Assembly: GCA_044349095.1 (NCBI GenBank)
Contig: JBIKRO010000002.1
Coordinates: 47,211-111,210, forward strand
DNA from: Aquirufa sp.
GTDB lineage: Bacteria > Bacteroidota > Bacteroidia > Cytophagales > Spirosomataceae
Direction of reading: 5' to 3'
Length of the DNA stretch: 64,000 nt
In this document: positions 24,454 through 62,704 of the stretch, in pieces
Layout of the letters: each line of letters begins with the position of its first letter
Position numbering within the stretch: the stretch's first letter is position 1
Notes under the pieces: model-generated
Seen by the model: only the letters and a program-made list of their open reading frames with translations
Told to the model about the DNA's origin: nothing
Database searches by the model: none
Program-made: the position numbers and the translations under genes

Positions 24454-24492
24454 TATCTCGCATATTTAGATCCATTTATTAATCAAATTCAT

Positions 24493-36514: not shown

Positions 36515-36553
36515 AAAAGCCTGCCGATTCACATGAGTCGGCAGGCTTTTTTT
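36515..36553. terminator. bidirectional intrinsic terminator between prfC and the BASS transporter
   Basis: Perfect 13-bp stem AAAAGCCTGCCGA/TCGGCAGGCTTTT with a 10-nt loop. T-run on the plus strand and A-run upstream. Confidence 0.8.
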
Positions 36554-36576: not shown

Positions 36577-37632
36577 TTATTTATTTTTCCAATAATTGGC
36601 CAAGCTGGATCCATTGATGTTCATGACTGGACCAAAAATGGCTGCGGGTAATCCTACAGTTGCCACTTTTCCCATGGCCATGGCTAAACCTGAGGCTAAA
36701 CCTGCATTTTGTAATCCTACTTCAATAGCGATTGTTCGACAATCTTTTTCAGGAAGATTGGTGAGTCTACCTCCCCAATATCCTAAAATAAAACCGATGA
36801 TGTTGTGTAAAAAACAAGCCAAAACAAGCAGTGGGCCAACGGAAATAAGAGCATCCCTTCCATTAGCTGTAATAATGATGATGATCAATCCAATACTAAT
36901 CATGGAGATTAGTGGCAATTGTTCTTGAAACCAAGGCCATTTATTTCCAATGATTCGGTTGTAAATGACCCCTAAAATAATGGGGATTAAGATCAATTTA
37001 CTGATTTCCCAAATCATGGCGATCAGATCAATTTCGATCAATTGGCCGGCCAGATTTTTCATCAACAAGGGAGTTAAAAGGGGCGCAATGAATGTGGCGA
37101 TGGACGTTAGCGTGAGTGAAAGAGCTACATTGGCCTTGGCTAAATAAGACATAACGTTCGAAGCTAATCCGCAAGGCATGCAACCTACTAAAATGATGCC
37201 CGCCGATATTTCCGGCGGGAAGCTAAATACTTTTGTTAAGCCCCAGCCCACTAATGGCATGATGGAAAATTGGAAAAATACGCCTAAAGCCACAGCTTTT
37301 GGAGACTTTAACACTTCTTGGAAATCTGAAATCTGCATGGTAGATCCCATCCCAAACATGATTAATTGCAGCAATGGGATAATCAATATTTTAAATTTTA
37401 CATCACCAAAGCCAATGAAGGGCGTAGGGAATTGTAGCGTTAAAACTACCGCTGCGATGATCCACAGCGTAAATGAGAAGCCTTTCAGTGACTCTTTGGT
37501 ATGGGTGGAGATGGCTATCAGCGCAACGCCAATGATCCATAAAATTCCGGCCCAAGAAGTATCTGAAAAAATAAGCCCAATAAGTATAATGGTCGCCCCA
37601 GAAATGGATAATAATTTAAAGTTGTTTTTCAT
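36577..37632 (-). CDS. bile acid:sodium symporter (BASS/SBF) family transporter with an N-terminal extension
   Basis: Polytopic membrane protein with 'EVGLQNAGLASGLA' and 'MFGMGSTM' type SBF signatures. It has about 75 extra N-terminal residues carrying additional TM segments. Overlaps the AraC gene by 17 nt. Confidence 0.72.
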   Translation of the reverse strand: MKNNFKLLSISGATIILIGLIFSDTSWAGILWIIGVALIAISTHTKESLKGFSFTLWIIAAVVLTLQFPTPFIGFGDVKFKILIIPLLQLIMFGMGSTMQISDFQEVLKSPKAVALGVFFQFSIMPLVGWGLTKVFSFPPEISAGIILVGCMPCGLASNVMSYLAKANVALSLTLTSIATFIAPLLTPLLMKNLAGQLIEIDLIAMIWEISKLILIPIILGVIYNRIIGNKWPWFQEQLPLISMISIGLIIIIITANGRDALISVGPLLVLACFLHNIIGFILGYWGGRLTNLPEKDCRTIAIEVGLQNAGLASGLAMAMGKVATVGLPAAIFGPVMNINGSSLANYWKNK

Positions 37633-38509
37633 AATAGGTTTTGCGGTATTTATGCGGACTGACGCCCGTCATTTTTTTAAAGGTTAACGAAAAGTGTTGT
37701 GGCGAATAAAAGCCAGTTTCATAGGCTATGTCGCCTATTTTATGATTGAAATGTGTCATTAAATTCATGGCAATATTGATGCGTGTTTTGATTAAAAAGT
37801 TGATAGGACTTAAGCCCGTCTCCATTTTCATTCGCTCACTAAACGCCGTGATTCCGAGCTGCGCTATCTGAGCCATCTCAGGTACAGACCAATGATGCAA
37901 TGGATCTTTCGTTATATTTTGTTCAATAATTTGACTCACTTTTGTATTTTCTGACGTTTTTAAACTAGACTTTTGAGCTTCGCGTGCGTATAAAATCATG
38001 ATTTGGTCAATAATATGGATGACCATTTCATTTTGGCTCATTTCGTGGACAAATATTTCATTGGTCAACTGCACAAATAATTTGGCCAAGAAATCTGATT
38101 TATTGATTTTGAATTTATGGTAGTTTTTGAAAATTTCGCCAATTTCCATTTGGTCATATTTGGAAATTTTAGACCAATATCCAAATTCTAAATCTTGATC
38201 AGCATCAAAAAATTTAGTGCGTATAATGAGGTGAAAGAAGGATGAACGTCTAATTCGATTAGGGATAATTTCGACATTTTCCCATGGGCATACCACCAAA
38301 CAGTCACCGGGAAGCATGGTTTGTCTATTACCGTCAACACTAATTTCAAAAATTCCATCTTTGAAATAGAACATGCGAATACCGATTCCTTGAGGTAAAT
38401 ATACGGGGTTTGACTTGTTTGAGTCAACGGTCTGAAAGCTAAAATGCTCGATAAATGGGAAGTGAGCACTACAATCATTAAATGGAAATGTTAACGCAAA
38501 ATTTTTCAT
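37616..38509 (-). CDS. AraC family transcriptional regulator
   Basis: N-terminal cupin-like sensor region and a C-terminal double HTH ending 'IAYETGFYSPQHFSLTFKKMTGVSPHKYR'. Confidence 0.88.
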   Translation of the reverse strand: MKNFALTFPFNDCSAHFPFIEHFSFQTVDSNKSNPVYLPQGIGIRMFYFKDGIFEISVDGNRQTMLPGDCLVVCPWENVEIIPNRIRRSSFFHLIIRTKFFDADQDLEFGYWSKISKYDQMEIGEIFKNYHKFKINKSDFLAKLFVQLTNEIFVHEMSQNEMVIHIIDQIMILYAREAQKSSLKTSENTKVSQIIEQNITKDPLHHWSVPEMAQIAQLGITAFSERMKMETGLSPINFLIKTRINIAMNLMTHFNHKIGDIAYETGFYSPQHFSLTFKKMTGVSPHKYRKTYYEKQL

Positions 38510-38722
38510 GTTAAATTAAAATCAATCCATTCGGCAAATCAATTTTAGCGCTAAATAGTCTAAAAAATATGAATAGAACTAGTTGGTTTATTGCTTCAAT
38601 TTAAATTATAACACAATACAACCGAAAATTTATAAAAAAAAATTATAAAAATCACCAACGAGGAAATATATAATTTTTTCTCAATATAATTAAGAATATT
38701 AGCGGTCTAAACTTAAACAATT

Positions 38723-41700
38723 ATGATAAAAAATTACAAAAAGAATCTAACAAGGTTATTGTTAGGCTTGGCTATCATGATGCCAAATTTGATTTTTGCT
38801 CAAGCCAGAATCACTGGTTTGGTCAGTTCTGCCAAGGGCAATGAAGCCATTGCAGGTGTATCAGTCGCCATTAAGGGGACTAGTCAGGGCACATCAACAG
38901 ACGCGAATGGTAAGTATTCCATTAATGCGCCTAGTAACGCAACCCTAGTTTTTTCATTTGTTGGTTTTGTGAAAAAAGAAGTAAGCGTAGGTGCTCAGTC
39001 TGTGATTAATGTTTCTCTTTCTGAAGAAACCACAGCCTTAGATGAAGTAGTCGTTACTGCTTTGGGTATTAAAAAGGAGTCGAAAAAATTAGGTTATGCA
39101 ACCACAACGATCACTCCTGAGGCCATTACAGAGAATAGATCTCCTAACTTCATGAATGCTTTACAAGGTAAAATTGCCGGTGTAAACATTTCATCTCTAG
39201 GAACTGGACCTGCAGGTACTTCTAAAATTCGAATCAGGGGTCAGTCTTCATTCTCTGGTCAAAACTCGCCTTTAATTGTTATCAATGGTGTGCCTATTGA
39301 TAATACCAACTTTGGTACCAATCCAGGTAATAATGCCTCCGATAATTCAATTGGCGTCCGTGGAAGTGGTAATACTTCCGATGGGGGTGATGGTTTGTCA
39401 AGTATAAATCCAGATGACATTGAGTCCATGACGGTTTTGAAAGGAGCAACTGCTGCCGCATTGTATGGTTCTCGTGCGAAAGATGGGGTTTTAATGATCA
39501 CGACAAAAACAAAAGGTAAAACAAAGGGTATCGGCGTTTCATATAATATGAATTACACCAACGAGACACCTTTGGACTTCACTGATTATCAATATGAGTA
39601 TGGCCAAGGAGAAAGTGGTTTGCGCCCTACAACGGCTAACCCGACTTCAGGTCAGTGGTCTTTTGGTGAGAAATTTCAGCCAGGAATGACCCAAGTACTT
39701 TTTGATGGAGTTAGCGTTCCTTATGCGCCTGTATATGATCGAATTAATAAGTTCTTTGTAAAAGGAATGAACTTGACCAATACCGTGAGTATTGCTAGCA
39801 ATAGTGATAACGGTGGTTTCAATATGTCTATTTCTAATATGGATAACAATGGTATTGTTTCAAACAATACGTTTAATCGAAAAACGATCAACTTAGGTTT
39901 TGCTTATGATCTTTCTACGAAGCTATCAGTAGCAGGAAATATCAACTACTCGAATGAGTATAACAAGAACCCACCTAATATTGCGAATCAAGATAACTCG
40001 ATTCCAACAGCCGTTTATAACATGGCTAACTCGATGCCTTTTGATTTGTTAGAGCAGAAAGCGGTGGATGCCAACGGAGACGAGTTTGTATATTCTCGTT
40101 TTAGAAATAGAACGAATCCTTACTTCACCATGAAGAAGCAATTTCAAAACATTAGAAGAGATCGTATTTTCGGAAATATTTCTGCCAAATACAATATCCT
40201 ACCATGGTTATTTGTTCAAGGTAGAGTAGGTCAGGATTATTGGTCACGTGATCAAGATTTTAACAACTTCCCTACAGGACATGCCTCCATCGGGCCTGCA
40301 CCTGCCGGTTTTGTGAATGGAACATATACACAAGAATCTAGAAGATTTAGAGAAACCAATACCGACATTTTGATTTCAGCTACTAAGGCCTTTGGAGATT
40401 TTGAGTTTAATTTAACGGCGGGTGGTAATCAAATGTATCGTCGCTCCGACTTGAATAGTACTCAAGTTGTGGACTTTGTCGTAAGAGATTTATACACAGT
40501 CATGAATGGACGTGTGAAGGATCCGGTTTATGGATTAAGTGAAAGGTCCGTTAATTCCGTGTATGGATCGGGTGAAATTTCATTTAGAAATTATTTGTTT
40601 TTAAATGTAACCGCTCGTAACGACTGGTTCTCTACGCTTTCACCGGCGAATAGAAGCATTTTCTATCCTTCTGTTTCGGGTAGTTATGTATTTTCGCAAG
40701 CATTTGACAACATGCCTTCTTGGTTGACCTTCGGTAAATTAAGAGCTGCTGTGGCAGAAGTGGGATCAGATACGGACGTTTCTCCCTATTCAAACAATTT
40801 GTTTTATGGCATTAACCCCAACTTATTTGCTAATCCTGCCGGTGCTTTGCAACCCGTTGGAGGTGGACAAGGAAACGTGGTGCCTAACGCAGGTTTGAAA
40901 CCAATGAGAACGCGTGAATCTGAAATCGGTTTGGAATTAAAAATGTTCAATAGCCGCGTAACCTTAGATATGGCCGTGTATCAGAAGTTGACCAGCGACC
41001 AAATCGTTTCTGCTCAAATTTCAGATGCTTCAGGATTTACGAACTCCCTTATTAATAGTGGACAAAGTGAGAATAAAGGATTTGAAATGTTATTGAATTT
41101 GGTGCCTATCAAAACAGCAGATTTCCAATGGGATTTAACGCTTAATGGTTCTTATAACACCACAAAGGTATTAAGCTTATTGACTAATACTCCGGGGGAA
41201 AGAATTACAGTAGGTACTCACGTATTTAATGGTGAACTACGTCAGGTAGTAGGCCAAGAAATGGGCCAAATTTATGGCTTTGGCTATAGACGTGATGCTA
41301 ACGGGAAAAGAATTTTTGGGGCTAACGGTATTGCCTTAAGAACTCCTGATTTGATTTCTTTTGGAAGTGCTATTCCTAAGTATGTGGGCGGTATTACAAA
41401 CACGTTTAATTATAAGGGAATTTCATTATCAGCCTTGATTGATTTCAAAGTAGGAAACATGATGCTTTCGGGAACTAATTTCAATGCAGTACGTCACGGA
41501 TTGCATAAGATGACCTTGGAAGGTAGAGAAGGTGGCGTAGTGGCTGATGGAGTGAATGCACAGGGTGGACCCAATACGGCTAAGGCAGGTGTTCAACCAT
41601 TCTGGGAAGTAGTTCGTTCCCAAGCATTAATTGAGCCTGTTGTATATGATGGTAGTTATTGGAAATTACGTCAAATTACAGCTGGATACGATTTTACGAA

Positions 41701-41896
41701 GCACTTAAGCCCGAAATCGCCAATTAAAGGGATCAAATTGAGCTTTGTTGCCAATAATGTATTAATACTCAAAAAATACATAGATAATATTGACCCTGAG
41801 TCATTTGGATATTCTTCAGATAACTTGGTGGGAATGGAGTCAACAGGCTTGCCAACGACTAGAAGTTTAGGATTTAATTTAAATGTTAAATTTTAA
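38723..41896 (+). CDS. SusC/RagA family TonB-dependent outer membrane transporter
   Basis: Signal peptide, CarboxypepD_reg-like 'ITGLVSSAKGNEAIAGVSVAIKGTSQGTSTDANGKYSI', plug 'DEVVVTALGIKKESKKLGYA', and a C-terminal aromatic residue '...NLNVKF'. 1057 aa. Confidence 0.93.
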   Translation: MIKNYKKNLTRLLLGLAIMMPNLIFAQARITGLVSSAKGNEAIAGVSVAIKGTSQGTSTDANGKYSINAPSNATLVFSFVGFVKKEVSVGAQSVINVSLSEETTALDEVVVTALGIKKESKKLGYATTTITPEAITENRSPNFMNALQGKIAGVNISSLGTGPAGTSKIRIRGQSSFSGQNSPLIVINGVPIDNTNFGTNPGNNASDNSIGVRGSGNTSDGGDGLSSINPDDIESMTVLKGATAAALYGSRAKDGVLMITTKTKGKTKGIGVSYNMNYTNETPLDFTDYQYEYGQGESGLRPTTANPTSGQWSFGEKFQPGMTQVLFDGVSVPYAPVYDRINKFFVKGMNLTNTVSIASNSDNGGFNMSISNMDNNGIVSNNTFNRKTINLGFAYDLSTKLSVAGNINYSNEYNKNPPNIANQDNSIPTAVYNMANSMPFDLLEQKAVDANGDEFVYSRFRNRTNPYFTMKKQFQNIRRDRIFGNISAKYNILPWLFVQGRVGQDYWSRDQDFNNFPTGHASIGPAPAGFVNGTYTQESRRFRETNTDILISATKAFGDFEFNLTAGGNQMYRRSDLNSTQVVDFVVRDLYTVMNGRVKDPVYGLSERSVNSVYGSGEISFRNYLFLNVTARNDWFSTLSPANRSIFYPSVSGSYVFSQAFDNMPSWLTFGKLRAAVAEVGSDTDVSPYSNNLFYGINPNLFANPAGALQPVGGGQGNVVPNAGLKPMRTRESEIGLELKMFNSRVTLDMAVYQKLTSDQIVSAQISDASGFTNSLINSGQSENKGFEMLLNLVPIKTADFQWDLTLNGSYNTTKVLSLLTNTPGERITVGTHVFNGELRQVVGQEMGQIYGFGYRRDANGKRIFGANGIALRTPDLISFGSAIPKYVGGITNTFNYKGISLSALIDFKVGNMMLSGTNFNAVRHGLHKMTLEGREGGVVADGVNAQGGPNTAKAGVQPFWEVVRSQALIEPVVYDGSYWKLRQITAGYDFTKHLSPKSPIKGIKLSFVANNVLILKKYIDNIDPESFGYSSDNLVGMESTGLPTTRSLGFNLNVKF

Positions 41897-41918
41897 ATCG
41901 CTTTAAACGAAAAATAAT

Positions 41919-43436
41919 ATGAAAAAGATAGCAATAATTTTATTTTCAGCATGTGGGTTAATAGGACTCAATGCTTGTGATGCGGGCTTCGACGAGATGA
42001 ATGTAAACAAAACAGCGGCAATAGCCATCAACCCTGTTTTTGCATTAAATAACGCCGTAATTAATACTACTCCTCCGTCACCAACAGTTCAATATGAAAT
42101 GGGGATAGTCCAACAAATGATTTCGCCCAACTCTGGGGTTTTAGCAGGGGCTAATTTTAATCAAGATAACCGTGATTATACGCAGGCAACTTGGCAGCGT
42201 TATTACCGTTCTGTGATTCGAAATACCTATGATGTGATCGCTACAACCAAAGATCCGTCAAGAACTAATTTGGTTAACATGGCTAAGATTTTACAATCCT
42301 ATGCCTTTTTAGTGTTGACAGATACGTATGGTGATATTCCTTATACAGAAGCAGGAAAAGGATATACGGATCAAAAAGTTTATCCTAAATATGATAAACA
42401 ACAAGCTGTTTATGCTGGAATTATCAAAGATATATCTGATGCGGTGGCAGCCTTAGATGCTAGTAAAACTAGAGAAACGGCTGATGTCCTTTTTGGAGGT
42501 GATGTGGCAAAATGGAAGAAGTTTGGAAATTCACTTTTGCTTCGTATCGGAATGCGCTTGTCTAAAGTGGACGCAACCCAAGCTCAAGCATTAGTAACTA
42601 GAGCGTTTGCGGGTGGCGTTATCACTACTAATGCAGATAATGTGCTTATTCTTCATGATGCTAATTATTTAAATAGCATAGGCCAATTGTTAAACGCTAC
42701 TGAGGCGAACAATTTTTACCTAGCTGCACCATTCGTTGATCATTTAAAGAAAACAAATGATCCGCGCTTGAGGTCAATCGCGGTACGTTACGTGGGAGCC
42801 ACTTCGGGAACTCAACAAACGCCTGCTAGGGCGGTGATTGATCCTGCTGTTCAAATAGGAATGCCTTTTGGATATGACAACTCTTCAATCAGTGGACCTG
42901 TAAAGACATTAGGTTTAGCTAGTTTTTATGATTTTAGTCAAGCCGACAGAACTCGAATGAATAAAACGACGGCTCGCGCTTATCTAGTAACAGCTTCACA
43001 AACTAATTTATTGTTAGCTGAGGCAGTAACAAGAGGTTGGGTTACAGGAAGCGCCAAAGACTATTATGAAGCAGGTGTTAAAACACACATGGCCCAAGTA
43101 AGCGAAATGGACGCTAATTCAGTGGTTGCTTCAAGCGCCGTTGATGCATATTTAGCTGCAAATCCATTTAATTCAACAACGGCCTTGGAGCAAATTAATA
43201 CGCAATATTGGATTTCATGTTTCTTAAATGGACCTGAAGCATTTGCTAATTTCCGCCGTACAGGATTCCCTAAATTGACGCCCAATCCTTTCTCAGGTAA
43301 AGCTATCAAAGGAGATTTCATCAATCGTTTAACGTATCCTAACTCTGAAATTTCAGTTAATTCGGTGAACGTAAAAGCAGCTATAGCGAACCAAGGTGCG
43401 GATGATTTAGATACCAAAGTTTGGTGGCATAAATAA
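41919..43436 (+). CDS. SusD/RagB-like outer membrane lipoprotein
   Basis: Lipobox 'GLNAC' and a helical TPR-like body. Lies immediately (22 nt) downstream of susC-like. 505 aa. Confidence 0.82.
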   Translation: MKKIAIILFSACGLIGLNACDAGFDEMNVNKTAAIAINPVFALNNAVINTTPPSPTVQYEMGIVQQMISPNSGVLAGANFNQDNRDYTQATWQRYYRSVIRNTYDVIATTKDPSRTNLVNMAKILQSYAFLVLTDTYGDIPYTEAGKGYTDQKVYPKYDKQQAVYAGIIKDISDAVAALDASKTRETADVLFGGDVAKWKKFGNSLLLRIGMRLSKVDATQAQALVTRAFAGGVITTNADNVLILHDANYLNSIGQLLNATEANNFYLAAPFVDHLKKTNDPRLRSIAVRYVGATSGTQQTPARAVIDPAVQIGMPFGYDNSSISGPVKTLGLASFYDFSQADRTRMNKTTARAYLVTASQTNLLLAEAVTRGWVTGSAKDYYEAGVKTHMAQVSEMDANSVVASSAVDAYLAANPFNSTTALEQINTQYWISCFLNGPEAFANFRRTGFPKLTPNPFSGKAIKGDFINRLTYPNSEISVNSVNVKAAIANQGADDLDTKVWWHK

Positions 43437-43461
43437 TGAATACCATAAACCTATAACATAT

Positions 43462-44907
43462 ATGAAAGATTTTGTAAAACGTTTTAGAGCGGAGGATAAA
43501 GCCAAGGCTCAAGAAAACTCAAGAAGAAATTTCCTTCGCAATTCTGCCTTAGGCGGCTTGTCATTGGGGATGATTTTTGATCATGATCCTGAAAAGGAAA
43601 TGGAGTATATTACTCAAAAAGTGAACAAATCGAGTAATCCCTCAGAACTTAAAATTACCGATATTCGTATTGCTGTAATTGACAAAGCACCTATGACTTG
43701 TCCCTTGATTCGTATTGATACAAACCAAGGGCTAGTTGGCTGGGGTGAGGTGCGCGATGGCGCAAGTCCGAAATATGCCATGATGCTGAAAAGCAGATTG
43801 ATGGGTCAAAATCCATGTAATGTGGAGAAGATTTTCAAAATCATCAAGCAATTTGGCGGTCAAGGAAGAGCTGCTGGCGGTGTTTGTGGAGTAGAAATGG
43901 CACTTTGGGATTTAGCAGGAAAGGCTTTTGGCGTTCCTGTGTACCAAATGCTAGGAGGTAAGTATCGCGATGAAATTCGAATTTATGGAGATACTCCTGA
44001 GGTCGCAGATCCAAACGAATTTGCTAAAAAAATGAAGGAACGTCAAAATTTAGGTTTGACATTTTTGAAAATGGACTTTGGTATTCAATTATTAGCTGAT
44101 GTTCCTGGAGCTTTAGTGGGTGGAAAGAATTGGGATGTAAAGAGACAATGGGGGAATAACCCATCTGCGAAGGGAAATGCTCGTTCGTACAGCTGGACGA
44201 AACATCCTTTCACACGTATCCAAGTAACCGATAAAGGGATTCAGTATTTAGCTGATTATGTGGGCACAGTTCGAAATGTGATCGGGTATGATACTCCACT
44301 TGCAGCGGATCATTTTGGTCATTTTGATGTAAATACCGCGATTCGTTTAGGTAATGCGTTGGAGAAATACCAATTAGCTTGGTTAGAGGATATGATACCT
44401 TGGCAGTATACGGAACAATGGCATCAAATTACTTCGGCAATCAATACGCCAACGTTAACCGGTGAAGACATTTACTTGAAAGAAGAATTTATCAAGTTGA
44501 TCGACGCACACGCGGTGGATATGATTCAACCAGATTTAGCTAGTTCAGGTGGTATTTTGGAAACGAAGAAAATAGGTGATTATGCTGAAGAAAATGGAGT
44601 TCCTATGGCAATGCACTTTGCCGGTTCTCCGATTTGCTTTATGGCTAATATTCATTGCGCTGCGGCCACAGAAAATTTTGTTGCGCTTGAGCATCATTCA
44701 TTCGATGTTCCTTGGTGGGAGGATTTAGTGACTGGAATCGAGAAGCCAATTTTCAACAAAGGTTTTGTCAAAGTTCCAAACAAGCCAGGTTTAGGGGTCG
44801 AATTGAATGAAGAGGTAGTAAAAGCCCACTTGAAATCAGGTGAAATGTTCTTTGCTCCTACGGACGATTGGACCAAGATTGATTCATGGGATCGCGAATG
44901 GTCTTAA
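43462..44907 (+). CDS. enolase superfamily protein (mandelate racemase/muconate lactonizing family, acid-sugar dehydratase-like) with a twin-arginine leader
   Basis: Leader '...ENSRRNFLRNSALGGLSLGMIF'. Metal/catalytic blocks are 'AADHFGHFD', 'LAWLEDMIP', 'LTGEDIY', 'MIQPDLASSGG' and 'MAMHFAGSP'. Confidence 0.85.
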   Translation: MKDFVKRFRAEDKAKAQENSRRNFLRNSALGGLSLGMIFDHDPEKEMEYITQKVNKSSNPSELKITDIRIAVIDKAPMTCPLIRIDTNQGLVGWGEVRDGASPKYAMMLKSRLMGQNPCNVEKIFKIIKQFGGQGRAAGGVCGVEMALWDLAGKAFGVPVYQMLGGKYRDEIRIYGDTPEVADPNEFAKKMKERQNLGLTFLKMDFGIQLLADVPGALVGGKNWDVKRQWGNNPSAKGNARSYSWTKHPFTRIQVTDKGIQYLADYVGTVRNVIGYDTPLAADHFGHFDVNTAIRLGNALEKYQLAWLEDMIPWQYTEQWHQITSAINTPTLTGEDIYLKEEFIKLIDAHAVDMIQPDLASSGGILETKKIGDYAEENGVPMAMHFAGSPICFMANIHCAAATENFVALEHHSFDVPWWEDLVTGIEKPIFNKGFVKVPNKPGLGVELNEEVVKAHLKSGEMFFAPTDDWTKIDSWDREWS

Positions 44908-44914
44908 ATTTTAC

Positions 44915-44942
44915 AAGGGTGATGTTCGCATCACCCTTTTTT
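44915..44942 (+). terminator. intrinsic terminator/attenuator inside the locus, after the first enolase-family gene
   Basis: Perfect 10-bp stem AAGGGTGATG/CATCACCCTT, TTCG loop, then a T-run. Confidence 0.7.
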
Positions 44943-44967
44943 ATCTACACATAAACCTATTTATATC

Positions 44968-45897
44968 ATGAAAATTAAAGTAATAATATTGAGTTATTTG
45001 GCCATTAGCCTTTCATTTTTGTCTTTCGGACAAAATATCCAAATGCCAAAAGAGATGATTATGACTTACTCTCAGCAATGGAAGGGTGAGCGCTTTCCTG
45101 ATGGTCGTCCAAGAGTTTCAGATGATTTGGTCAAAAGATTAGCCAAAATTTCCATTGAGGAAGCTTGGGGCGTAATGCGCGGCGAAGGATACGAAAGTCA
45201 ATTTGAAGGGAATTGGCATATTATAAATCCCAATAAGCCGCTTGCTGGCCGTGTCCTGACTGCGCAATACATGCCAATGCGTCCAGATATCAATACGCCC
45301 ATCATGGAAAAGGGGAAATCAGAAAATCGGAAAGGTGCTTCTAATTCCTGGCCTATCGATTTATTACAAGAGAATGATGTGTATGTAGCGGATGGCTATG
45401 GCAAGATTATAGACGGTACTTTGATTGGTGATAATTTAGGAAACTCGATTTATGCCAAATCAAAAACGGGTGTTGTTTTTGACGCCGGTATCCGCGATTT
45501 AGAAGGACTTGAGGCCATTGATGGTTTTGTAGGCTTTGTACGTGGGGTGGATCCTTCATTTATTAAAAATGAAATGTTGACTGGTATCAATTACCCAATC
45601 CGAATTGGTCGTGTCACGGTGATGCCTGGGGATTTGATCTTAGGTAAAAAAGAAGGTGTTATTTTTATTCCTGCTCATTTAGCCGAAAAGGTAATTTCAA
45701 CATCTGAGTTTATTGGCATGACAGATGCTTTTGGCCATTTACGTTTGAAGCAAGGAAAATATACGCCAGGTCAAATAGATCAAAAATGGACGGATGACAT
45801 CAAGGCTGATTTTGTTAAATGGGCCGACGAAAATCCAGATAAGCGTCCGATGTCTAAAGCGGAATTAGCCAAGATTTTGAAAGATAAAAATTGGTAA
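44968..45897 (+). CDS. RraA-like / class II aldolase-like family protein, long form, with a Sec signal peptide
   Basis: Signal 'MKIKVIILSYLAISLSFLSFGQ' and core 'IGDNLGNSIYAKSKTGVVFDAGIRDLEGL', matching the RraA/HMG-aldolase 'G..G.V.DG..RD' region. 309 aa. Confidence 0.75.
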   Translation: MKIKVIILSYLAISLSFLSFGQNIQMPKEMIMTYSQQWKGERFPDGRPRVSDDLVKRLAKISIEEAWGVMRGEGYESQFEGNWHIINPNKPLAGRVLTAQYMPMRPDINTPIMEKGKSENRKGASNSWPIDLLQENDVYVADGYGKIIDGTLIGDNLGNSIYAKSKTGVVFDAGIRDLEGLEAIDGFVGFVRGVDPSFIKNEMLTGINYPIRIGRVTVMPGDLILGKKEGVIFIPAHLAEKVISTSEFIGMTDAFGHLRLKQGKYTPGQIDQKWTDDIKADFVKWADENPDKRPMSKAELAKILKDKNW

Positions 45898-45902
45898 TTC
45901 AG

Positions 45903-46844
45903 ATGAGAAAAATAATCGGAATTTTCGCAATTGTCTTGGTGTCGACGTTCGCGTGGGGCCAACAAATTTCCAAGGAAGAAATGCTTTTTTTGACTCCTTT
46001 ATGGAAAGGGGAACGTTTTGCTGATGGCCGACCAAAGGCCTCTGACGCTTTATTGCAAAGGCTCAAATCCGTGACATTGGAAGAGGCCTGGGCAGTATTG
46101 AAAAATGAAAACTTTAAGCATAATTATGAAGACGGTTGGCAAACCATTAATCCCGATAGTGTGTTAGTGGGTCGAGCGTTAACCGCTACTTTTATGCCGG
46201 GTCGACCAGATATCCAACGGGTTATCGACGACCGTGGTCATACCAAAGACGGAAGAATTAAGTCTCAAAATTCATGGCCCATTGACATGCTAGTCAAAGG
46301 CGATGTTTATGTGGTGGACCAATTTGGTGCACATGAGGATGGTCCGACGATTGGCGATAATTTGGGGAATTCCATTTATGCGAAAACGGGCAATGGCATT
46401 GTGTATAATGGTGCTGTTCGCGACATCAATGGCTTAAAGGAATTAGGTAGGTTTACCTCCTTTTTTCGCACCTATCACCCTTCCCATCATTTAAACAATC
46501 CCGATGGGGAGTTGAATACTACGTTGGTAGGAATAAATACACCGACCCGCATCGGAAAAGCAACGGTTCTTCCAGGAGACGTGGTTTTAGGTCGAGATGG
46601 CGGAGTGATTTTCATCCCTCCACATTTATTGGAAAAAGTGGTAAAGACCTCTGAGATTGTTCGTTTGAGGGATATGTTTGGGCATCAGCGTTTACGCGAG
46701 CAAAAATATACCCCGGGTCAAATTGACAATCGTTGGAGTGAAGAAATCGAAAAAGATTTCTCAAAATGGTTAAATGACAAAATAGACAAATTGCCAGTTC
46801 CTAAGGCACAAATACAAGAATTTTTGAAAGGTAGGACTTGGTAA
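45903..46844 (+). CDS. RraA-like / class II aldolase-like family protein, paralog 2, with a Sec signal peptide
   Basis: Signal 'MRKIIGIFAIVLVSTFAWGQ' and core 'IGDNLGNSIYAKTGNGIVYNGAVRDINGL'. Roughly half its positions are identical to the upstream paralog by eye. The ATG at 45903 is preferred over the TTG at 45891. Confidence 0.75.
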   Translation: MRKIIGIFAIVLVSTFAWGQQISKEEMLFLTPLWKGERFADGRPKASDALLQRLKSVTLEEAWAVLKNENFKHNYEDGWQTINPDSVLVGRALTATFMPGRPDIQRVIDDRGHTKDGRIKSQNSWPIDMLVKGDVYVVDQFGAHEDGPTIGDNLGNSIYAKTGNGIVYNGAVRDINGLKELGRFTSFFRTYHPSHHLNNPDGELNTTLVGINTPTRIGKATVLPGDVVLGRDGGVIFIPPHLLEKVVKTSEIVRLRDMFGHQRLREQKYTPGQIDNRWSEEIEKDFSKWLNDKIDKLPVPKAQIQEFLKGRTW

Positions 46845-46851
46845 AAAATAG

Positions 46852-48144
46852 ATGAAAATGAAAAATAAATCAGATAGACGCGAGTTTTTTAAAAATGGAT
46901 CTTTAGCTGCTTCGGCGTTAATGTCCGGATCCATGTTTCACTGGGGTGGTCGCTATGAAGAGGCCATCAGTGATAATCCAAAGATGTCGGCTCCGGCCGA
47001 CTTGAAAATTACTGACATCAAATGTGGGTATATCCGAGGAGGCTACCACCTGTATGTTAAAATTTTTACGAATCAAGGTATTTATGGCGTGGGAGAAGGT
47101 GCGGATGCAACTCCGGGAACTTATCATTTAGTTAAAATGATGGGCCAACGGATCATTGGCAAAAGCCCATTGAATATCAATCGCTTATTTGAGGACATAC
47201 GCAAAAGTGGATTTTTTGCCGGTGCTCAGTCGGGCATGTATGTAGCTGTTTTGACAGCTGTAGAAAGTGCACTTTGGGATTTGGCTGGGAAGGCTTTGGG
47301 TTTACCGGTGTACCAATTATTAGGTGGAAAATTTAGGGATAAAATCCGTGTCTATATGGACACAGCTTTATATCAAACCAAATTACCTAAGCCCTCTGAT
47401 TTTGCGGAGGCGGCTCAGAAGGCGGTGGATATGGGATTTAATGCGATTAAATTTGACATAGATCAAGCTAATGATCCTAATAAATATGATGCATACAATT
47501 GGACAGCAAGTCCGGCTGAATTAAGACGTATGTTTGAACAAATCGCCGCTGCTCGAAAGCAAGTGGGCCCTGATATCGACATATGTGTGGACATGCATGG
47601 AAGATACGATGCTCCTACCGGTGAAAAAGTAGCGAAAATGATGGAGCCATTAAATTTAATGTGGCTAGAGGAACCCGTTCCAGCTGAGAATATCCAGGCA
47701 TATAAAAAAATCACGGACTCCACTTCTACGCCTATTTGCGCGGGTGAAAACCAGTATTTAGCTTATGGATTTAGGGAGATGTTGGAAATCGGTGCGGTTG
47801 ACATCATCATGCCAGACTTGCAGAAAGCGGGTGGTTTGGGTGAAGGCCAGCGAATTGCCAACTTGTCGAATTTGTATTATGTGCCTTTTGCGCCGCACAT
47901 GGTGTCCTCATTTTTAGGTGCTATGGCTGCTTGTCACGTGTGTGCATCGGTACCGAATTTCTTAATCTTAGAATGGCAAGCGTATTTCCATACGGATCCG
48001 ATGTATAAAGAGATTGTCATTCACAAAGGAGAATGGCTAGATAAAGGATTTATTCCATTATCGAATGAACCAGGTGTGGGTGTTGATATCAACATTGAAG
48101 CCATGCGTAAATACGCAGTTAAAGGAGTTCCGTTTTTTGATTAG
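46852..48144 (+). CDS. enolase superfamily protein (galactonate/mannonate dehydratase-like) with a twin-arginine leader
   Basis: Leader 'MKMKNKSDRREFFKNGSLAASALMSGSMF'. Blocks are 'CVDMHGRYD', 'LMWLEEPVP', 'CAGENQY', 'IIMPDLQKAGG' and 'FAPHMVSS'. Confidence 0.85.
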   Translation: MKMKNKSDRREFFKNGSLAASALMSGSMFHWGGRYEEAISDNPKMSAPADLKITDIKCGYIRGGYHLYVKIFTNQGIYGVGEGADATPGTYHLVKMMGQRIIGKSPLNINRLFEDIRKSGFFAGAQSGMYVAVLTAVESALWDLAGKALGLPVYQLLGGKFRDKIRVYMDTALYQTKLPKPSDFAEAAQKAVDMGFNAIKFDIDQANDPNKYDAYNWTASPAELRRMFEQIAAARKQVGPDIDICVDMHGRYDAPTGEKVAKMMEPLNLMWLEEPVPAENIQAYKKITDSTSTPICAGENQYLAYGFREMLEIGAVDIIMPDLQKAGGLGEGQRIANLSNLYYVPFAPHMVSSFLGAMAACHVCASVPNFLILEWQAYFHTDPMYKEIVIHKGEWLDKGFIPLSNEPGVGVDINIEAMRKYAVKGVPFFD

Positions 48145-49370
48145 CGGATACGCTTTAAAATTTCTATACAGGCTCTTCCATTGTGGTAAGGGCCTTTCCA
48201 AGGGCCTATTTTTCCATTGCGAATCATAGGCTCTTCTTTTTCATCGATCCCCCAAAGCCATTCGCCTGAGGATGATTTTAGTTTTGATTTGATGAAAGAC
48301 CAACTTCCTAGACTCAGTGCGTAGAATTTTTTATTTCCAGTTAACTGGTATGCGTTATAATATCCGACCATGGCTTCTGCTTGTGGCCACCAATGTTTCT
48401 GGGTATTGATATGTCCATGATTTTTCTCATTCCACATCCCACCATCTTTTGGGTCAATTCCTTTTTCGGCTTCGATGGCCATATTTACGGCCAATTTTTT
48501 CATTTTTTTAATCCAAATCGGATTTTTAATCGTTTCCGCAGTTTCTAACAAAAGCCAAGCAGATTCGATGTCATGTCCAAAAGAAACGGCTTCCGATCTT
48601 GTAGACCAATTATCAGTGAAAAATAAAGTTTGCGTTTTGCCGTTGGCTATAATTTTTTCATGAAAAATGGAAAGCATGGTTTCAATTTCAGCCTTTAATT
48701 TTTTGTCGGGATACACCTGATAAAGATTTGAAAAGGCTTCAATCAAATGTAAATGTGTATTCATGGATTTTTTTTGATCTGCTTTTCCTTCGGTAATCGT
48801 CTTATCATCAATCGGCGTCCAAGCCTCATTGTAAGCTTCATAATAACCCCCATTTTTCAGGTCCTTGCAGTTGGTTTGTAAGATCTGATAGATGCTTTTT
48901 GCTTTTTCTAACGCTTGCGGATTTTTCGAAATTTTATAATATTCAGCAAAGGCATATAGCATAAATCCTTCTGCATAGACTTGTTTATGGGTGTCGGAGG
49001 GAGTTCCGTTCGATTTCACGGACCAATAAGCGCCTTTATTTTTAGTGTCCCAAAAATAAGTATTGAGGTAATTAAATGCTCGGTCGGCCAATTTTTTATA
49101 CCCTGGCTTTGGGTCCATTTGATAGGCAGCTGAAAATGTCCAAAGAACTCTACTATTCAAAATTAAACCTTTATCGGCCTGCAGGTTGGGTACGTTATTC
49201 GCGTCAACAGCTCCGTAGAATCCGCCTTTTTCGACATCCACACTATTCTTTTCCCAATAACTTAAAATGTCATTCAGTTCCGTTTTTATTTCTTTTCTAA
49301 AGTCGCTTGGGCTTTGTGCGGAAATGGATTGTGCGTACATTAAAAAAATAAGAATTTTAAAGATTTTCAT
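48141..49370 (-). CDS. AGE family (N-acylglucosamine 2-epimerase-like) (alpha/alpha)6 epimerase/isomerase with a signal peptide
   Basis: Signal 'MKIFKILIFLMYAQSISAQ' and 'EKGGFYGAVDANNVPNLQADKGLILNSRVLWTFSAAY', typical of the AGE superfamily. 409 aa. Confidence 0.78.
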   Translation of the reverse strand: MKIFKILIFLMYAQSISAQSPSDFRKEIKTELNDILSYWEKNSVDVEKGGFYGAVDANNVPNLQADKGLILNSRVLWTFSAAYQMDPKPGYKKLADRAFNYLNTYFWDTKNKGAYWSVKSNGTPSDTHKQVYAEGFMLYAFAEYYKISKNPQALEKAKSIYQILQTNCKDLKNGGYYEAYNEAWTPIDDKTITEGKADQKKSMNTHLHLIEAFSNLYQVYPDKKLKAEIETMLSIFHEKIIANGKTQTLFFTDNWSTRSEAVSFGHDIESAWLLLETAETIKNPIWIKKMKKLAVNMAIEAEKGIDPKDGGMWNEKNHGHINTQKHWWPQAEAMVGYYNAYQLTGNKKFYALSLGSWSFIKSKLKSSSGEWLWGIDEKEEPMIRNGKIGPWKGPYHNGRACIEILKRIR

Positions 49371-49667: not shown

Positions 49668-50639
49668 ATGACAAATCCTATTCAAATATCCATTGTTATA
49701 CCTGTTTATCAAGGAGAAAAAACGCTGCCAAAATTAGTTGGCGAGTTAATTGCCTATAGCCAAGTACAAATGACTAAGCTTGGGAATCCCTATATCATTA
49801 ATGATATTATTCTAGTGCATGATTGTGGTTTTGATCGCTCAGATAAAGTTATCGAAGAATTAAGTGAGCTATACTCAGAAGTACGGCCACTTTGGTTATC
49901 TAAAAATTTTGGTCAGCATCCCGCCACCATGGCTGGAATGGCAAGTGCTACAGGTGATTGGATCGTTACATTAGATGAAGATGGACAGCAAGACCCTACT
50001 TTTATTGCAGGAATGTTAGACGAGGCATTGTCTAAATCACTCCAAGTAGTTTACGCGCTGCCTACAAATCCTCCTCCCCACGGTTTTTTAAGAAATATAT
50101 TTAGCGTCTTAGCGAAATCGATTTTCCAAAAGCTTTCAGGAAATGTTATGTCTAAGTATTTCAATAGCTTTCGAATGATTGATGGGGAAATTGCAAGAAC
50201 ATTGGCAGCTTATAGTGGAAATGGAATTTATTTAGATGTTGGTCTTTTATGGGTTTCTTCAAGAATTGGAAGTTTTCCCGTTGTGCTTAGAGATGAAGAT
50301 AGGCCATCAGGGTATTCTTATGGTAAGTTGATGAGTCATTTTTGGCGATTAATTTTAACTTCAGGCACAAAACCCTTAAGATTAATCACTTTGTTAGGAT
50401 TCTCCTCGTTAATGATTGCTTTCATCACATCCATCATTGCTTTGTATGATAAAATCTTAGGAAATGTACCAGTTCAGGGCTGGACCTCTTTGTTCATTAT
50501 GGTCTCATTTTTCTCCGGAGCCATCATGCTTTCATTGGGAATAGTGGCTGAATATTTGGCAATAACCATGAGCATTGCCATGGGAAAACCACTCTATGTG
50601 ATTGCTACGAAACCGTCAAGGCCCCAACAAAACACATAA
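49668..50639 (+). CDS. GT2 family glycosyltransferase, polyprenyl-phosphate glycosyltransferase architecture (GtrB/ArnC/Ppm1-like)
   Basis: 'ISIVIPVYQGEKTL' N-terminus, 'TLDEDGQQDP' DxD-type motif, and two C-terminal TM helices ('LITLLGFSSLMIAFITSIIAL', 'LFIMVSFFSGAIMLSLGIVAEYL'). Confidence 0.85.
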   Translation: MTNPIQISIVIPVYQGEKTLPKLVGELIAYSQVQMTKLGNPYIINDIILVHDCGFDRSDKVIEELSELYSEVRPLWLSKNFGQHPATMAGMASATGDWIVTLDEDGQQDPTFIAGMLDEALSKSLQVVYALPTNPPPHGFLRNIFSVLAKSIFQKLSGNVMSKYFNSFRMIDGEIARTLAAYSGNGIYLDVGLLWVSSRIGSFPVVLRDEDRPSGYSYGKLMSHFWRLILTSGTKPLRLITLLGFSSLMIAFITSIIALYDKILGNVPVQGWTSLFIMVSFFSGAIMLSLGIVAEYLAITMSIAMGKPLYVIATKPSRPQQNT

Positions 50640-54963: not shown

Positions 54964-55355
54964 TGGATATTCATTTTAAAAAAGACCCGCTGATGTATCT
55001 TTCAAATTATTTGTTGACGGGTTTATCTGTATTGTTTTTTATGGGTGTTTGTGTGGAGGCCTCAGCACAAACTAAAAAAGCTATTGAATACAAGACCCCG
55101 AATTTTGGCTGCACGTTTGAAGATGGCCCTTTCCAAGCGAAAATAATAGCTACACAAAGTCGCCTCCCTAAAAATAAGATCGATTTTTTAACGAGCGTAG
55201 ATATTCAAGGTTGCCAGGTTATTCACATTACTTTCGACAAAGTGGCAAAGGGATTTGAGGTTGCTTTTAAGCCAACCGACATCGACGATTCCGGCAATGC
55301 TATCATACTGGCAGAACAAGGAATTAGCTACGAAATTCACCTCATTTTGCCCTAA
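54963..55355 (+). CDS. hypothetical small secreted or membrane-anchored protein
   Basis: 1-nt overlap (TAATG) with the fusion gene. Hydrophobic 'LLTGLSVLFFMGVCVEASAQ'. No family motif. Confidence 0.45.
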   Translation: MDIHFKKDPLMYLSNYLLTGLSVLFFMGVCVEASAQTKKAIEYKTPNFGCTFEDGPFQAKIIATQSRLPKNKIDFLTSVDIQGCQVIHITFDKVAKGFEVAFKPTDIDDSGNAIILAEQGISYEIHLILP

Positions 55356-55357
55356 AT

Positions 55358-61039: not shown

Positions 61040-61144
61040 GTTATCTGGATTGATTTTGGGTTTTTCTATTGGCAGCAACGAATCGCAAAATAGAAGGTTG
61101 CTTTTTTCATAGGTTTGGAGAATACAATCATCATGCGTCTAAAT

Positions 61145-61179: not shown

Positions 61180-61200
61180 TAAAATTACTGAAAAAAATGA

Positions 61201-62688: not shown

Positions 62689-62704
62689 TTAAAATTTTAT
62701 AGAA

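Follow-up and report, generated by a model that had tools for sequence, protein, structure and literature searches.

A polysaccharide utilisation locus (PUL) is recognised by two features: an adjacent susC/susD pair, and co-located carbohydrate-active enzymes (CAZymes) that depolymerise a glycan. What would then be the role of a locus that holds the first of these and lacks the second? This question is raised by a stretch of 64,000 nucleotides from Aquirufa sp. (GenBank assembly GCA_044349095.1, contig JBIKRO010000002.1, positions 47,211 to 111,210 of the forward strand; hereafter, the window), where the region between 36.5 and 49.4 kb encodes a SusC/SusD pair followed by two enolase-superfamily enzymes (E1 and E2) and two RraA-fold proteins (R1 and R2), all four with N-terminal export signals. 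The reading that we favour, with a rough probability of 0.55, is that this locus would be a self-contained system for the uptake and processing of a carboxylated sugar, following the steps proposed below.

According to the list of open reading frames (ORFs) and to Pfam, the region is formed by two transcription units that diverge from each other and a single gene that converges on one of them, with the following features:

36515 to 36550, no strand: bidirectional, terminator-like hairpin with a 16-bp stem, at the left end of the locus, between the genes for release factor 3 (RF3) and the SBF transporter
36577 to 37632, minus strand: inner-membrane transporter of the SBF/BASS family (sodium/bile-acid symporter family), 351 aa (Pfam SBF, 1.1e-40)
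37616 to 38509, minus strand: AraC-family transcriptional regulator, 297 aa (Pfam HTH_18/HTH_AraC), divergent from susC
38510 to 38722, no strand: AT-rich divergent intergenic region of 213 bp, presumed to hold promoters and operators
38723 to 41896, plus strand: SusC/RagA-family TonB-dependent outer-membrane transporter, 1057 aa (TIGR04056, 622.7 bits; cut-off 368)
41919 to 43436, plus strand: SusD-like lipoprotein with lipobox LNAC, 505 aa (Pfam SusD-like_2/SusD-like, PF12771/PF12741 type)
43462 to 44907, plus strand: E1, enolase-superfamily enzyme of the mandelate racemase (MR) subgroup with a twin-arginine translocation (Tat) signal, 481 aa (MR_MLE_N and MR_MLE_C)
44915 to 44938, plus strand: terminator- or attenuator-like hairpin and U-run in the gap between E1 and R1 (RNA fold -15.1 kcal/mol, z = -3.4)
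44968 to 45897, plus strand: R1, RraA-fold protein with a Sec signal, 309 aa (Pfam RraA-like)
45903 to 46844, plus strand: R2, RraA-fold paralogue with a Sec signal, 313 aa (Pfam RraA-like); ATG start, on which the gene callers agree
46852 to 48144, plus strand: E2, enolase-superfamily enzyme with a Tat signal, 430 aa (MR_MLE_N and MR_MLE_C)
48141 to 49370, minus strand: AGE-family protein with a Sec signal, homologue of cellobiose 2-epimerase, 409 aa (Pfam GlcNAc_2-epim)

From SusC through SusD, E1, R1 and R2 to E2, the plus-strand genes are separated by 22, 25, 60, 5 and 7 nt, and the AGE gene converges on E2 with a 4-nt overlap at the E2 stop. The coordinates, the gaps of 5-60 nt and the divergent AraC gene described in an original prediction, made from the sequence alone, agree with the ORF list, and Pfam returns the same MR_MLE N- and C-terminal, RraA-like and SusC/D domains. 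Missing from that prediction was the SBF transporter, the first ORF of the range that it covered, whose gene lies 3' of the AraC gene in the same orientation with a 17-nt overlap; the matches of this protein to the NCBIfam PanS and bass models are under cut-off. SusC has Plug and CarboxypepD_reg domains and no STN domain. Through the hairpin between E1 and R1, SusC-SusD-E1 and R1-R2-E2 could differ in their level of expression. A scan of the window at the Rfam gathering thresholds gave no match, the divergent intergenic region included, and a scan for sigma-70 promoters, whose consensus is not applicable to Bacteroidota, stayed at chance level.

The adjacent susC/susD pair is therefore present (TIGR04056 above cut-off; PF12771/PF12741), and no depolymerising CAZyme accompanies it. 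Within 36.5-49.4 kb, Pfam gives no match to a glycoside hydrolase (GH), polysaccharide lyase (PL), carbohydrate esterase (CE), sulfatase or kinase family in any ORF of at least 100 aa. The earlier claim of such an absence holds for this region, but a conventional PUL begins 2.2 kb to its right.

Whether this composition is peculiar to one genome can be answered from its relatives. When clustered at 90% identity, the members of the R family in the protein collection form at least 7,999 clusters, and the family is present in at least 589 species-representative genomes. ORFs were called in 80 genome loci and labelled with the window proteins, which left, without redundancy, 62 loci flanked by four or more genes on either side of R; the calling was crude (the longest ORF from the first start codon), so that the neighbourhood counts are to be taken as estimates, and related genomes do not contribute independent loci. 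E1 lies no more than two genes from R in 48 of the 62 loci, and R and E are adjacent in 44, in a fixed order R-then-E, as seen separately for both paralogue pairs. An SBF transporter is found inside the module in 46 loci, with orthologues 41-58% identical, and SusC/SusD stand within four genes of R in 30. Less frequent are the second pair, R2-E2 (11/62), the AGE gene (5/62) and the AraC regulator (10/62, in the same position); other loci use an ECF sigma/FecR pair together with a STN-bearing SusC. The canonical order is (regulator)-SusC-SusD-R1-E1-SBF-(R2-E2)-(AGE), as seen in Emticicia, Lacihabitans, Chryseolinea, Niastella, Paraflavitalea and many metagenome-assembled genomes (MAGs), and the core array recurs across Cytophagales, Chitinophagales, Bacteroidales and Flavobacteriales. 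The mirror order E-R-R-E that had been singled out is present here, but E1-R1-R2-E2 with a relocated SBF gene is a rearrangement of R1-E1-SBF-R2-E2 found in the window's species only.

The co-occurrence of Tat-type enolases, RraA-like proteins and susCD, which the original prediction proposed to search for, does recur, and the transporter pair itself is orthologous. Across orders, module-adjacent SusD proteins are 43-71% identical to that of the window over their full length, and SusC proteins 48-78%. For SusD-family proteins, 43-71% is high, and this conservation across the E1-type loci argues for one conserved class of ligand.

The absence of CAZymes also extends beyond the window. Among the 64 unlabelled genes in co-directional, closely spaced runs around R in the 80 loci, Pfam identified GH28 (2), SASA esterase (2), GH78 (1) and a CBM9 carbohydrate-binding module (1), none of them recurrent, and no GH or PL was identified in a second set of metagenome loci anchored on E1. 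Glycan-depolymerising CAZymes are thus neither present in 36.5-49.4 kb nor recurrent in the 80 + 80 related loci searched with Pfam, in keeping with the expectation that homologous loci would not regularly carry GH or PL genes, and their absence appears to be a family trait of this type of locus. Large flanking proteins of 800-1100 aa were considered as hidden CAZymes and rejected, being SNF2 helicase, AsmA, AcrB, PriA, MacB, zincin protease and DUF362/Reg_prop proteins.

What accompanies the module instead are enzymes of sugar-acid metabolism without signal peptides. These are an FGGY kinase nearest to gluconokinase, in 14 loci; an NAD-dependent 6-phosphogluconate dehydrogenase (6PGDH, above cut-off), encoded between SusD and R1 in Emticicia; an IlvD/Edd-family protein nearest to L-arabinonate dehydratase; and, in Bacteroidales, a PfkB protein similar to 2-keto-3-deoxygluconate (KDG) kinase, a ribokinase (above cut-off) and Zn-dependent dehydrogenases nearest to L-threonine 3-dehydrogenase and L-idonate 5-dehydrogenase. 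Exported oxidoreductases recur as well, namely Tat-signal Gfo/Idh/MocA proteins, to which Maribacter adds an exported fusion of an aldose/sorbosone dehydrogenase with cytochrome c. These recurrent cytoplasmic neighbours and the SusCD link support, in outline, the periplasmic sugar-acid route fed by a TonB-dependent importer that had been proposed, and those conditions set for its refutation that were open to checking all spoke for it.

The strongest indication of where R would act comes from a sibling type of locus in Dyadobacter and Maribacter, in which SusC-SusD...R-SBF is kept and E is replaced by three exported proteins: a Sec-type amidohydrolase (PRK09237, above cut-off), a Tat-type pyridoxal phosphate (PLP)-dependent ammonia-lyase of the DgaE family and a Tat-type RidA-like protein. 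The two loci, with the order SusC-SusD-RidA-DgaE-amidohydrolase-R-SBF, are:

L038, 6672 to 9800: sibling locus of Dyadobacter koreensis
L072, 5982 to 12666: sibling locus of Maribacter algicola

By analogy, both front ends (E, or amidohydrolase, DgaE and RidA) would plausibly make a 2-keto-3-deoxy acid and, because two different front ends converge on R and SBF, R can be placed as the step after E, acting on a 2-keto-3-deoxy sugar acid. Exported PLP lyases and RidA proteins look unusual in themselves.

The same loci bear on another explanation, by which E and R would act independently on different imported compounds, or R before E, and would be co-located merely through a shared transporter and regulator. 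In a reciprocal sample of E1-anchored metagenome loci, 58 of which had enough upstream sequence, R adjoins E1 in 28, lies nearby in 8 more and is absent from the fetched stretch in about 22; R, in turn, is found with other partners or alone with SBF, and, in the window, E1 and R1 have the terminator-like hairpin between them. All this would suit independent action. However, R-E adjacency with a fixed order in both paralogue pairs is hard to reconcile with it, and the feeding of R from a different front end forming a KDG-type product fits R as the common downstream step, which makes this explanation quite unlikely. The dehydratase-then-aldolase order of the original prediction is probable but not obligate, since E1-type enzymes also occur without R. 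Beside the R-less SusCD-E1 arrays lie genes for DUF362/Reg_prop proteins, sulfatases, UxuA, a FAD_binding_4 protein, multihaem cytochromes and an aldo-keto reductase. A protein of ~940 aa combining DUF362 with Reg_prop (two-component regulator propeller), which may be a sensor, recurs beside SusCD-(R1)-E1 in Bacteroidales-type loci:

L059, 1906 to 4749: DUF362/Reg_prop protein
L062, 1968 to 4823: DUF362/Reg_prop protein
L152, 4194 to 7025: DUF362/Reg_prop protein
L161, 7609 to 10407: DUF362/Reg_prop protein

In which compartment would these enzymes act? Both E1 (SRRNFLRNSALGGLSLGMIF) and E2 (DRREFFKNGSLAASALMSGSMF) have a S/T/D-R-R-x-F-L-K-type motif with a moderately hydrophobic stretch, as in Tat signals. 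The E1 N-terminus, with SRRNFLRN ahead of a Gly/Ala-rich hydrophobic stretch, reads ENSRRNFLRNSALGGLSLGMIF, and that of E2, with DRREFFKN ahead of such a stretch, reads KSDRREFFKNGSLAASALMSGSMF. The N-termini of R1, R2 and the AGE protein are short, basic-hydrophobic and of the Sec type (SFLSFG/QN, TFAWG/QQ and SISA/QS, respectively, with the predicted cleavage site at the slash), which agrees with the earlier description of two Tat and two Sec signals and of a secreted AGE-family protein (Pfam GlcNAc_2-epim) on the opposite strand. Export was judged by the conservation of these motifs across the orthologues from the 80 genome loci. The RR-x-hydrophobic motif with its Gly-rich hydrophobic stretch is found in 51 of 54 E1 (the three misses being artefacts of the regular expression) and in 14 of 15 E2 orthologues, and also in every full-length E1-type protein of the independent metagenome sample, including those without an R neighbour. 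In 49 of 50 R1 and 11 of 11 R2 proteins, the conserved WKGER motif comes after a hydrophobic signal. Signal-peptidase-I substrates of Bacteroidota start with Gln, and a small residue and Gln follow the signal in 57 of 61 R proteins. The cytoplasmic homologues 2qq6, FlDet and 5x15 have no N-terminal extension: PDB entry 2qq6 aligns from residue 52 of E2, without the extension of this protein, and FlDet, with its native N-terminus at Met1, aligns from residue 56 of R1. Since the signals are kept in orthologues and absent from cytoplasmic relatives, export is predicted to be a conserved trait of both the E and the R families.

It is extremely unlikely that these N-termini are instead non-functional and that the proteins are ordinary cytoplasmic sugar-acid enzymes encoded beside a transporter. 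The long conserved segment that precedes the twin arginines of E1, with no clear cleavage site after them, would speak for it, but the signals persist over roughly 130 orthologues of several orders, in which the identity of the mature parts falls to 55-60%, and both the Gln after the predicted Sec site and the lack of extensions in the cytoplasmic homologues contradict it. The segment of E1 (window 43462-43530; orthologues in loci L007-L090) spans 20-45 residues, an unusual length for a Tat n-region, with the consensus MKxxLDRFKFNGxIPxGP in Cytophagales; it may be a chaperone-binding or regulatory element.

The catalytic features of E1 and E2 point to sugar acids. Both proteins have the MR_MLE N-terminal capping and C-terminal barrel domains (PF02746 and PF13378), with three carboxylate ligands for the metal where barrel strands 3, 4 and 5 end (D283/E309/E335 in E1, D247/E273/E299 in E2) and a conserved dyad of Asp on strand 6 and His on strand 7 (D358/H385 and D322/H349, respectively). 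The metal triad is invariant in 55 E1 and kept in 15-16 of 16 E2 sequences; taking the D/E/E ligands, the Asp-His dyad and the strand-2 Lys-x-Asp together, the set is invariant in the 55 E1 and present in 14-16 of 16 E2. Galactonate, gluconate/galactonate and mannonate dehydratases are the best NCBIfam matches of both proteins, which score far higher on aldonate than on glucarate/galactarate dehydratase models. On the galactonate dehydratase (GalD) equivalog NF010624 (cut-off 311 bits), E1 reaches 204.9 and E2 249.5 bits, both under the cut-off, and their best PDB match is 2qq6, a structural genomics entry with no assigned function (for E2, E 2.3e-97 over the full length). The retained triad and dyad and the best scores, all for acid-sugar dehydratases, would thus fit the proposal that the enolase-family proteins act on acid sugars.

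The two proteins differ from each other where it matters for this chemistry. The Asp-x-His that supplies the general acid of galactonate dehydratase is found in E2 (D247-x-H249, DMH) and in 16 of 16 E2 sequences. At the same position E1 has DHF, within a conserved DH[F/Y/W]GH that keeps the aromatic residue in 54 of 55 E1 sequences, and its barrel domain carries a net insertion of roughly 36 residues with respect to E2. E1 and E2 are 31% identical and not redundant copies and, because their general-acid residues differ, they would probably take different substrates or stereoisomers.

R1 and R2, which are 46% identical, score 63.2 and 61.8 bits on PF03737 (cut-off 24.5). Asp155, Arg176 and Asp177 of R1 align to Asp102, Arg123 and Asp124 of the HMG/CHA aldolase (3noj; HMG, 4-hydroxy-4-methyl-2-oxoglutarate; CHA, 4-carboxy-4-hydroxy-2-oxoadipate), those of R2 do the same, and this trio, whose catalytic roles in the RraA-fold site have been described (bioRxiv 10.1101/516542), is invariant in 45 homologues. 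The AlphaFold model of R1 (pLDDT 89.6) has 26 significant Foldseek matches (E <= 0.001), all of them RraA-fold, with the long-form group ranking first (5ir2, 5x15, 3noj, 3k4i, 2c5q); against 3noj, the E value is 4.6e-14 and the TM score 0.73 on the target, at about 20% identity. R1, R2 and the consensus of the 45 homologues end in a C-terminal Trp (KxRxW; 45895-45897 in R1 and 46842-46844 in R2).

The closest characterised relative of R is, however, another enzyme. FlDet from Flavobacterium sp. UMI-01, a Mg2+-activated member of the RraA family, forms alpha-ketoglutarate semialdehyde from 2-keto-3-deoxy-D-glucarate and shows no activity on KDG, its 6-phosphate KDPG, 4-deoxy-L-erythro-5-hexoseulose uronate (DEHU) and 4-hydroxy-2-oxoglutarate (PMC8563752). 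The best model for R1 and R2 is that of the FlDet subfamily, NF006093, on which they score 98.3 and 88.5 bits, below the cut-off of 208, and FlDet itself 341.1 bits, as a full member. R1 and R2 are 26-28% identical to FlDet (whose sequence was machine-read from a supplementary PDF, with small errors possible) and have extra N- and C-terminal segments. The models of LigK aldolases give lower scores, all below cut-off: 54.6 bits for R1 and 46.7 for R2 on NF006731 (cut-off 179), and 52.8 and 45.0 on TIGR02798 (cut-off 304.5). The identification of the RraA-like proteins as pyruvate aldolases therefore stands as to the fold and the invariant Arg-Asp/Asp, but FlDet, the nearest subfamily, is not an aldolase, and with this relative aldolase chemistry would not be assured. 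R appears to be a separate, exported branch of RraA-fold enzymes that could catalyse a retro-aldol reaction, a decarboxylation or a FlDet-type dehydration/decarboxylation; in all three, the conserved Mg-Arg-Asp site would first enolise a 2-oxo acid.

These comparisons also bear on a route for lignin- or aromatic-derived acids. The HMG/CHA aldolase of protocatechuate 4,5-cleavage is the only RraA-fold aldolase characterised both structurally and kinetically, and the enolase superfamily includes muconate cycloisomerases. Such a route is very unlikely, as E1 and E2 score 72-84 bits on muconate cycloisomerase models and 205-250 bits on galactonate dehydratase, and R 45-55 bits on LigK against 88-98 bits on NF006093; moreover, the neighbours are sugar kinases, 6PGDH, epimerase and GH28 rather than ring-cleavage enzymes, and the amidohydrolase of the sibling loci is of the PRK09237 type, not of the LigI/LigJ type.

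Putting these elements from sequence, synteny and one structure model together, the substrate would be an aldonic, aldaric or uronic-derived acid, possibly still on a short oligosaccharide, brought across the outer membrane by the dedicated SusC/SusD pair. In the periplasm, E1 and E2 would take up the alpha proton next to the carboxylate and eliminate the hydroxyl at the beta position, yielding a 2-keto-3-deoxy sugar acid. Upon binding of this 2-oxo acid, the Mg-Arg-Asp site of R1 and R2 would enolise it and either split it by a retro-aldol reaction to pyruvate and an aldehyde or carry out a FlDet-type dehydration/decarboxylation. The small 2-oxo acid would then be moved into the cytoplasm by the SBF/BASS transporter; plant members of the BASS family carry pyruvate, glycolate and 2-oxo acids, and PanS from Salmonella carries ketopantoate. 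There, the AraC regulator would sense this acid or a derivative and induce the operon. The exported cellobiose-2-epimerase homologue would have an accessory role on the reducing-end sugar. Of this scheme, the genes, the conservation of export signals, catalytic residues and synteny, the orthology of SusCD and the lack of CAZymes are observed, whereas the order of the reactions, the chemistry of R, the cargo of SBF and the substrate are inferred.

Several observations weigh against this scheme. Every NCBIfam match of E1, E2, R1 and R2 is below its curated cut-off, so that the substrate cannot be read from the sequence. E1 lacks the general-acid His of GalD and may not be a dehydratase; since its pre-RR segment is long and no signal-peptidase site is evident after the Tat h-region, it may also remain anchored in the inner membrane. 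The E-R coupling, strong as it seems, is not obligate, because R was absent around E1 in those 22 or so of 58 loci and E is absent around R in Dyadobacter-type and other loci. A FlDet-type route to alpha-ketoglutarate semialdehyde is disfavoured because no aldehyde dehydrogenase lies near the modules, unless it is encoded elsewhere in the genome. Of the partners seen in relatives, FGGY, KdgK, 6PGDH, IlvD, Gfo, DgaE, RidA and GH28 were sought in the 64-kb window and none was found. Finally, the KDG-kinase neighbours suggest that KDG is imported intact in Bacteroidales, where a periplasmic KDG aldolase would be redundant.

The origin of the acid is the subject of a further alternative, in which the surroundings of the locus come into play. 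To its left lie housekeeping genes (SecDF, an amino-acid permease and RF3). On the right, genes for a family 2 glycosyltransferase (GT2) and an NAD-epimerase (49668-51601) precede the conventional PUL-like region (51622-64000), which opens with an unusual single-ORF fusion of an alginate-lyase domain (PF05426) and GH92 (51622-54963, 1113 aa) and continues with another PF05426 protein, a sulfatase, a pair of GH88/GH127-like proteins, a SusD of the PF07980 type and a TonB-dependent receptor. This PUL was considered as a part of the system and rejected, as its genes do not accompany the module in other genera: beyond the window's own species, nothing equivalent to GT2, NAD-epimerase, the fusion or the other PF05426 protein is encoded near the module, and the sulfatase gave only one match, a distant one. 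The exception is a 402-aa, weakly GH88-like protein (59870-61078, minus strand), whose orthologues (phmmer E about 1e-124) are found in four Bacteroidales MAG loci with R1-E1, with R1 as the immediate neighbour in two cases, a hint of some connection with the chemistry of unsaturated uronates:

L045, 1719 to 2909: GH88-like orthologue
L059, 10 to 1194: GH88-like orthologue
L062, 5 to 1201: GH88-like orthologue
L076, 8371 to 9576: GH88-like orthologue

In the MAGs of loci L011 and L012, 95-97% identical to the window, no GT2 or NAD-epimerase ORF was detected between the AGE gene and the GH92 fusion within the fetched loci, which may reflect a recent insertion or deletion. Elsewhere in the window, a GH63/MGH1-like glycoside hydrolase (24451-27135, plus strand, 894 aa) and a DUF885 protein (22504-24273, minus strand) are unrelated to the system.

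According to this alternative, the substrates would be oxidised uronates of pectin-, alginate- or glycosaminoglycan-like polymers, released by separate PL/GH loci such as the right-hand PUL; E would make 2-keto-3-deoxy-aldarate from an aldaric acid or aldarolactone, R would convert it to alpha-ketoglutarate semialdehyde and SBF would import the product. It is consistent with the best score of R1 and R2 being on NF006093, of which FlDet is a full member, and with their 26-28% identity to this enzyme, whose gene is flanked by an alginate lyase gene (PMC8563752). The PF05426 lyase-domain proteins, sulfatase and GH88-like genes at 51.6-61 kb of the window, the GH88-like orthologues just mentioned, and the presence of GH28 in two module loci and of UxuA in another are also in line with it. 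Even so, we consider it unlikely: neither the 90 loci nor the window yielded an aldehyde dehydrogenase homologous to FlDeg, the partner of FlDet, whereas fldeg adjoins fldet; E1 and E2 prefer aldonate to glucarate/galactarate models; gluconokinase-like, 6PGDH and KDG-kinase neighbours point to aldonates and KDG; the right-hand PUL does not follow the module beyond the window's species; and R is below the NF006093 cut-off and has its extra segments. As to the source of the acid, the kinase and 6PGDH neighbours favour aldonates, and FlDet with its alginate lyase, GH88-like, GH28 and UxuA hint at uronates or aldarates.

The AGE protein brings in one more possibility. It matches the cellobiose 2-epimerase 3wkf (2.5e-100) over residues 26-409, its whole mature length, and reaches 318 bits on NF041848 (cut-off 800). 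Cellobiose 2-epimerases epimerise the reducing-end sugar of beta-1,4 disaccharides and, to our knowledge, the characterised ones are not exported, unlike this protein. The AGE gene stands beside the module in loci L017, L018, L030, L035, L059, L062, L091, L108 and L137, and its presence is compatible with, and keeps open, the import of an oligosaccharide with a modified reducing end. On this basis, E and R might replace glycoside hydrolases in a non-hydrolytic 'peeling' of aldonate-terminated oligosaccharides, such as the cellobionate-type products released by lytic polysaccharide monooxygenases (LPMOs) or cellobiose dehydrogenase from cellulose, mannan or similar polymers and taken up through SusCD. 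E would dehydrate the terminal acid, R would expel the 4-O-linked chain by beta-elimination or cleave off the acid unit, and the epimerase would reset the new reducing end. SusCD systems normally import oligomers, yet this type of locus lacks GH and PL family-wide; the exported epimerase homologue recurs in the module in several lineages, and periplasmic sugar oxidisers recur too (Tat-Gfo/Idh/MocA, the aldose-dehydrogenase/cytochrome c fusion and the FAD_binding_4 protein). The argument is nevertheless purely chemical, we know of no enolase-superfamily or RraA-fold enzyme acting on glycosylated acids, and the epimerase is present in only 5 of 62 loci. The TonB-dependent import of aldonate-terminated chito-oligosaccharides is established (PMC9537276), but an oligomer is not required, as SusCD pairs can import monosaccharide acids, which is reported for NanOU and sialic acid (PMC3969230). 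Peeling is, on balance, rather improbable.

If the reading of a carboxylated-sugar system holds, thousands of Bacteroidota proteins annotated as 'RraA family' or 'mandelate racemase/muconate lactonizing enzyme family' would gain a location, a partner and a pathway context, and the Sus paradigm would extend from glycan depolymerisation to periplasmic C-C and C-O lyase chemistry on sugar acids. Given the distribution of the R family over species representatives, the periplasmic processing of oxidised sugars would be a candidate common strategy of soil and freshwater Bacteroidota, with a bearing on the fate of plant and fungal biomass oxidised by LPMOs or dehydrogenases and of uronate-rich polymers. 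It would also make clear which proteins should be expressed and screened, with Emticicia, Spirosoma, Dyadobacter, Chitinophaga and Siphonobacter as cultured hosts.

How does this locus compare, then, with known systems? With FlDet, R shares its origin in Bacteroidota, the RraA fold, the aligned Arg-Asp motif and the best NCBIfam model. However, FlDet is a cytoplasmic protein of 237 aa, in contrast to the 309 and 313 aa of R1 and R2 with their Sec signals, and its partner is an aldehyde dehydrogenase, of which none was found near R, instead of an enolase-family enzyme. The HMG/CHA aldolase (LigK/GalC type, a class II pyruvate aldolase/oxaloacetate decarboxylase) has the same fold and catalytic trio as R, but it is cytoplasmic, serves aromatic-acid catabolism and is only about 20% identical. 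As for E, the two domains, metal triad and His-Asp dyad are those of D-galactonate dehydratase and other MR-subgroup acid-sugar dehydratases, from which E2 also keeps the Asp-x-His; unlike these enzymes and 2qq6, which has no such signal, E1 and E2 have Tat signals and equivalog scores below cut-off, and E1 its aromatic residue and insertion.

Another RraA-fold protein with the aldolase-type Arg-Asp site, HLB5 from Parabacteroides johnsonii (PDB 5ir2), is encoded in a xylanase/glucuronidase cluster and was reported as a 'cellulase' (bioRxiv 10.1101/516542). As this shows, RraA-fold proteins had already been observed in glycan loci and had not been convincingly assigned; because of the FlDet and R family precedents, a sugar-acid role seems more likely for HLB5 than cellulase activity.

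Among complete systems, a canonical, Sus-like PUL has neighbouring susC and susD genes, a regulator of its own and periplasmic enzymes transcribed together in common with this locus, which differs in having no GH, PL or esterase, with none recurrent in its relatives, and in using enzyme families known only as cytoplasmic and catabolic. The nan operon of Bacteroides pairs a lyase with an AGE-family epimerase. In Tannerella and Bacteroides, NanOU is reported to be a SusC/SusD-like pair for sialic acid, a monosaccharide acid (PMC3969230), and the pair of the window is likewise proposed to serve a sugar acid instead of a polysaccharide. In contrast, the enzymes of Nan catabolism are cytoplasmic and of other families (class I aldolase). 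The ong cluster for oxidative chitin utilisation in Pseudoalteromonas prydzensis combines TonB-dependent oligosaccharide import with the cytoplasmic formation of KDG from N-acetylglucosaminic acid by OngB, OngC and OngD, of deacetylase, PLP lyase and RidA types (PMC9537276). The sibling loci carry analogous deacetylase, PLP lyase and RidA genes, and TonB-dependent import of a sugar acid would be common to both systems. Unlike the locus described here, which has no OngA-D, ong keeps its acid enzymes in the cytoplasm, with a periplasmic GH20 for trimming the oligomer and an SSS-family inner-membrane transporter, and has no RraA-fold or enolase-family enzyme.

The statement that no characterised example exists holds for the searchable literature, which describes neither exported RraA-fold or enolase-family enzymes nor this type of locus, and gives no account of the E-R pairing or of its linkage to orthologous SusCD and SBF in CAZyme-free loci, but cytoplasmic analogues do exist in FlDet and ong (PMC9537276). 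The components come from known superfamilies and the overall logic has precedents in PULs, NanOU and ong; this is not a categorically new system, and what appears to be new in it is the export of the E and R enzymes, their pairing, and their conserved linkage to SusCD and SBF.

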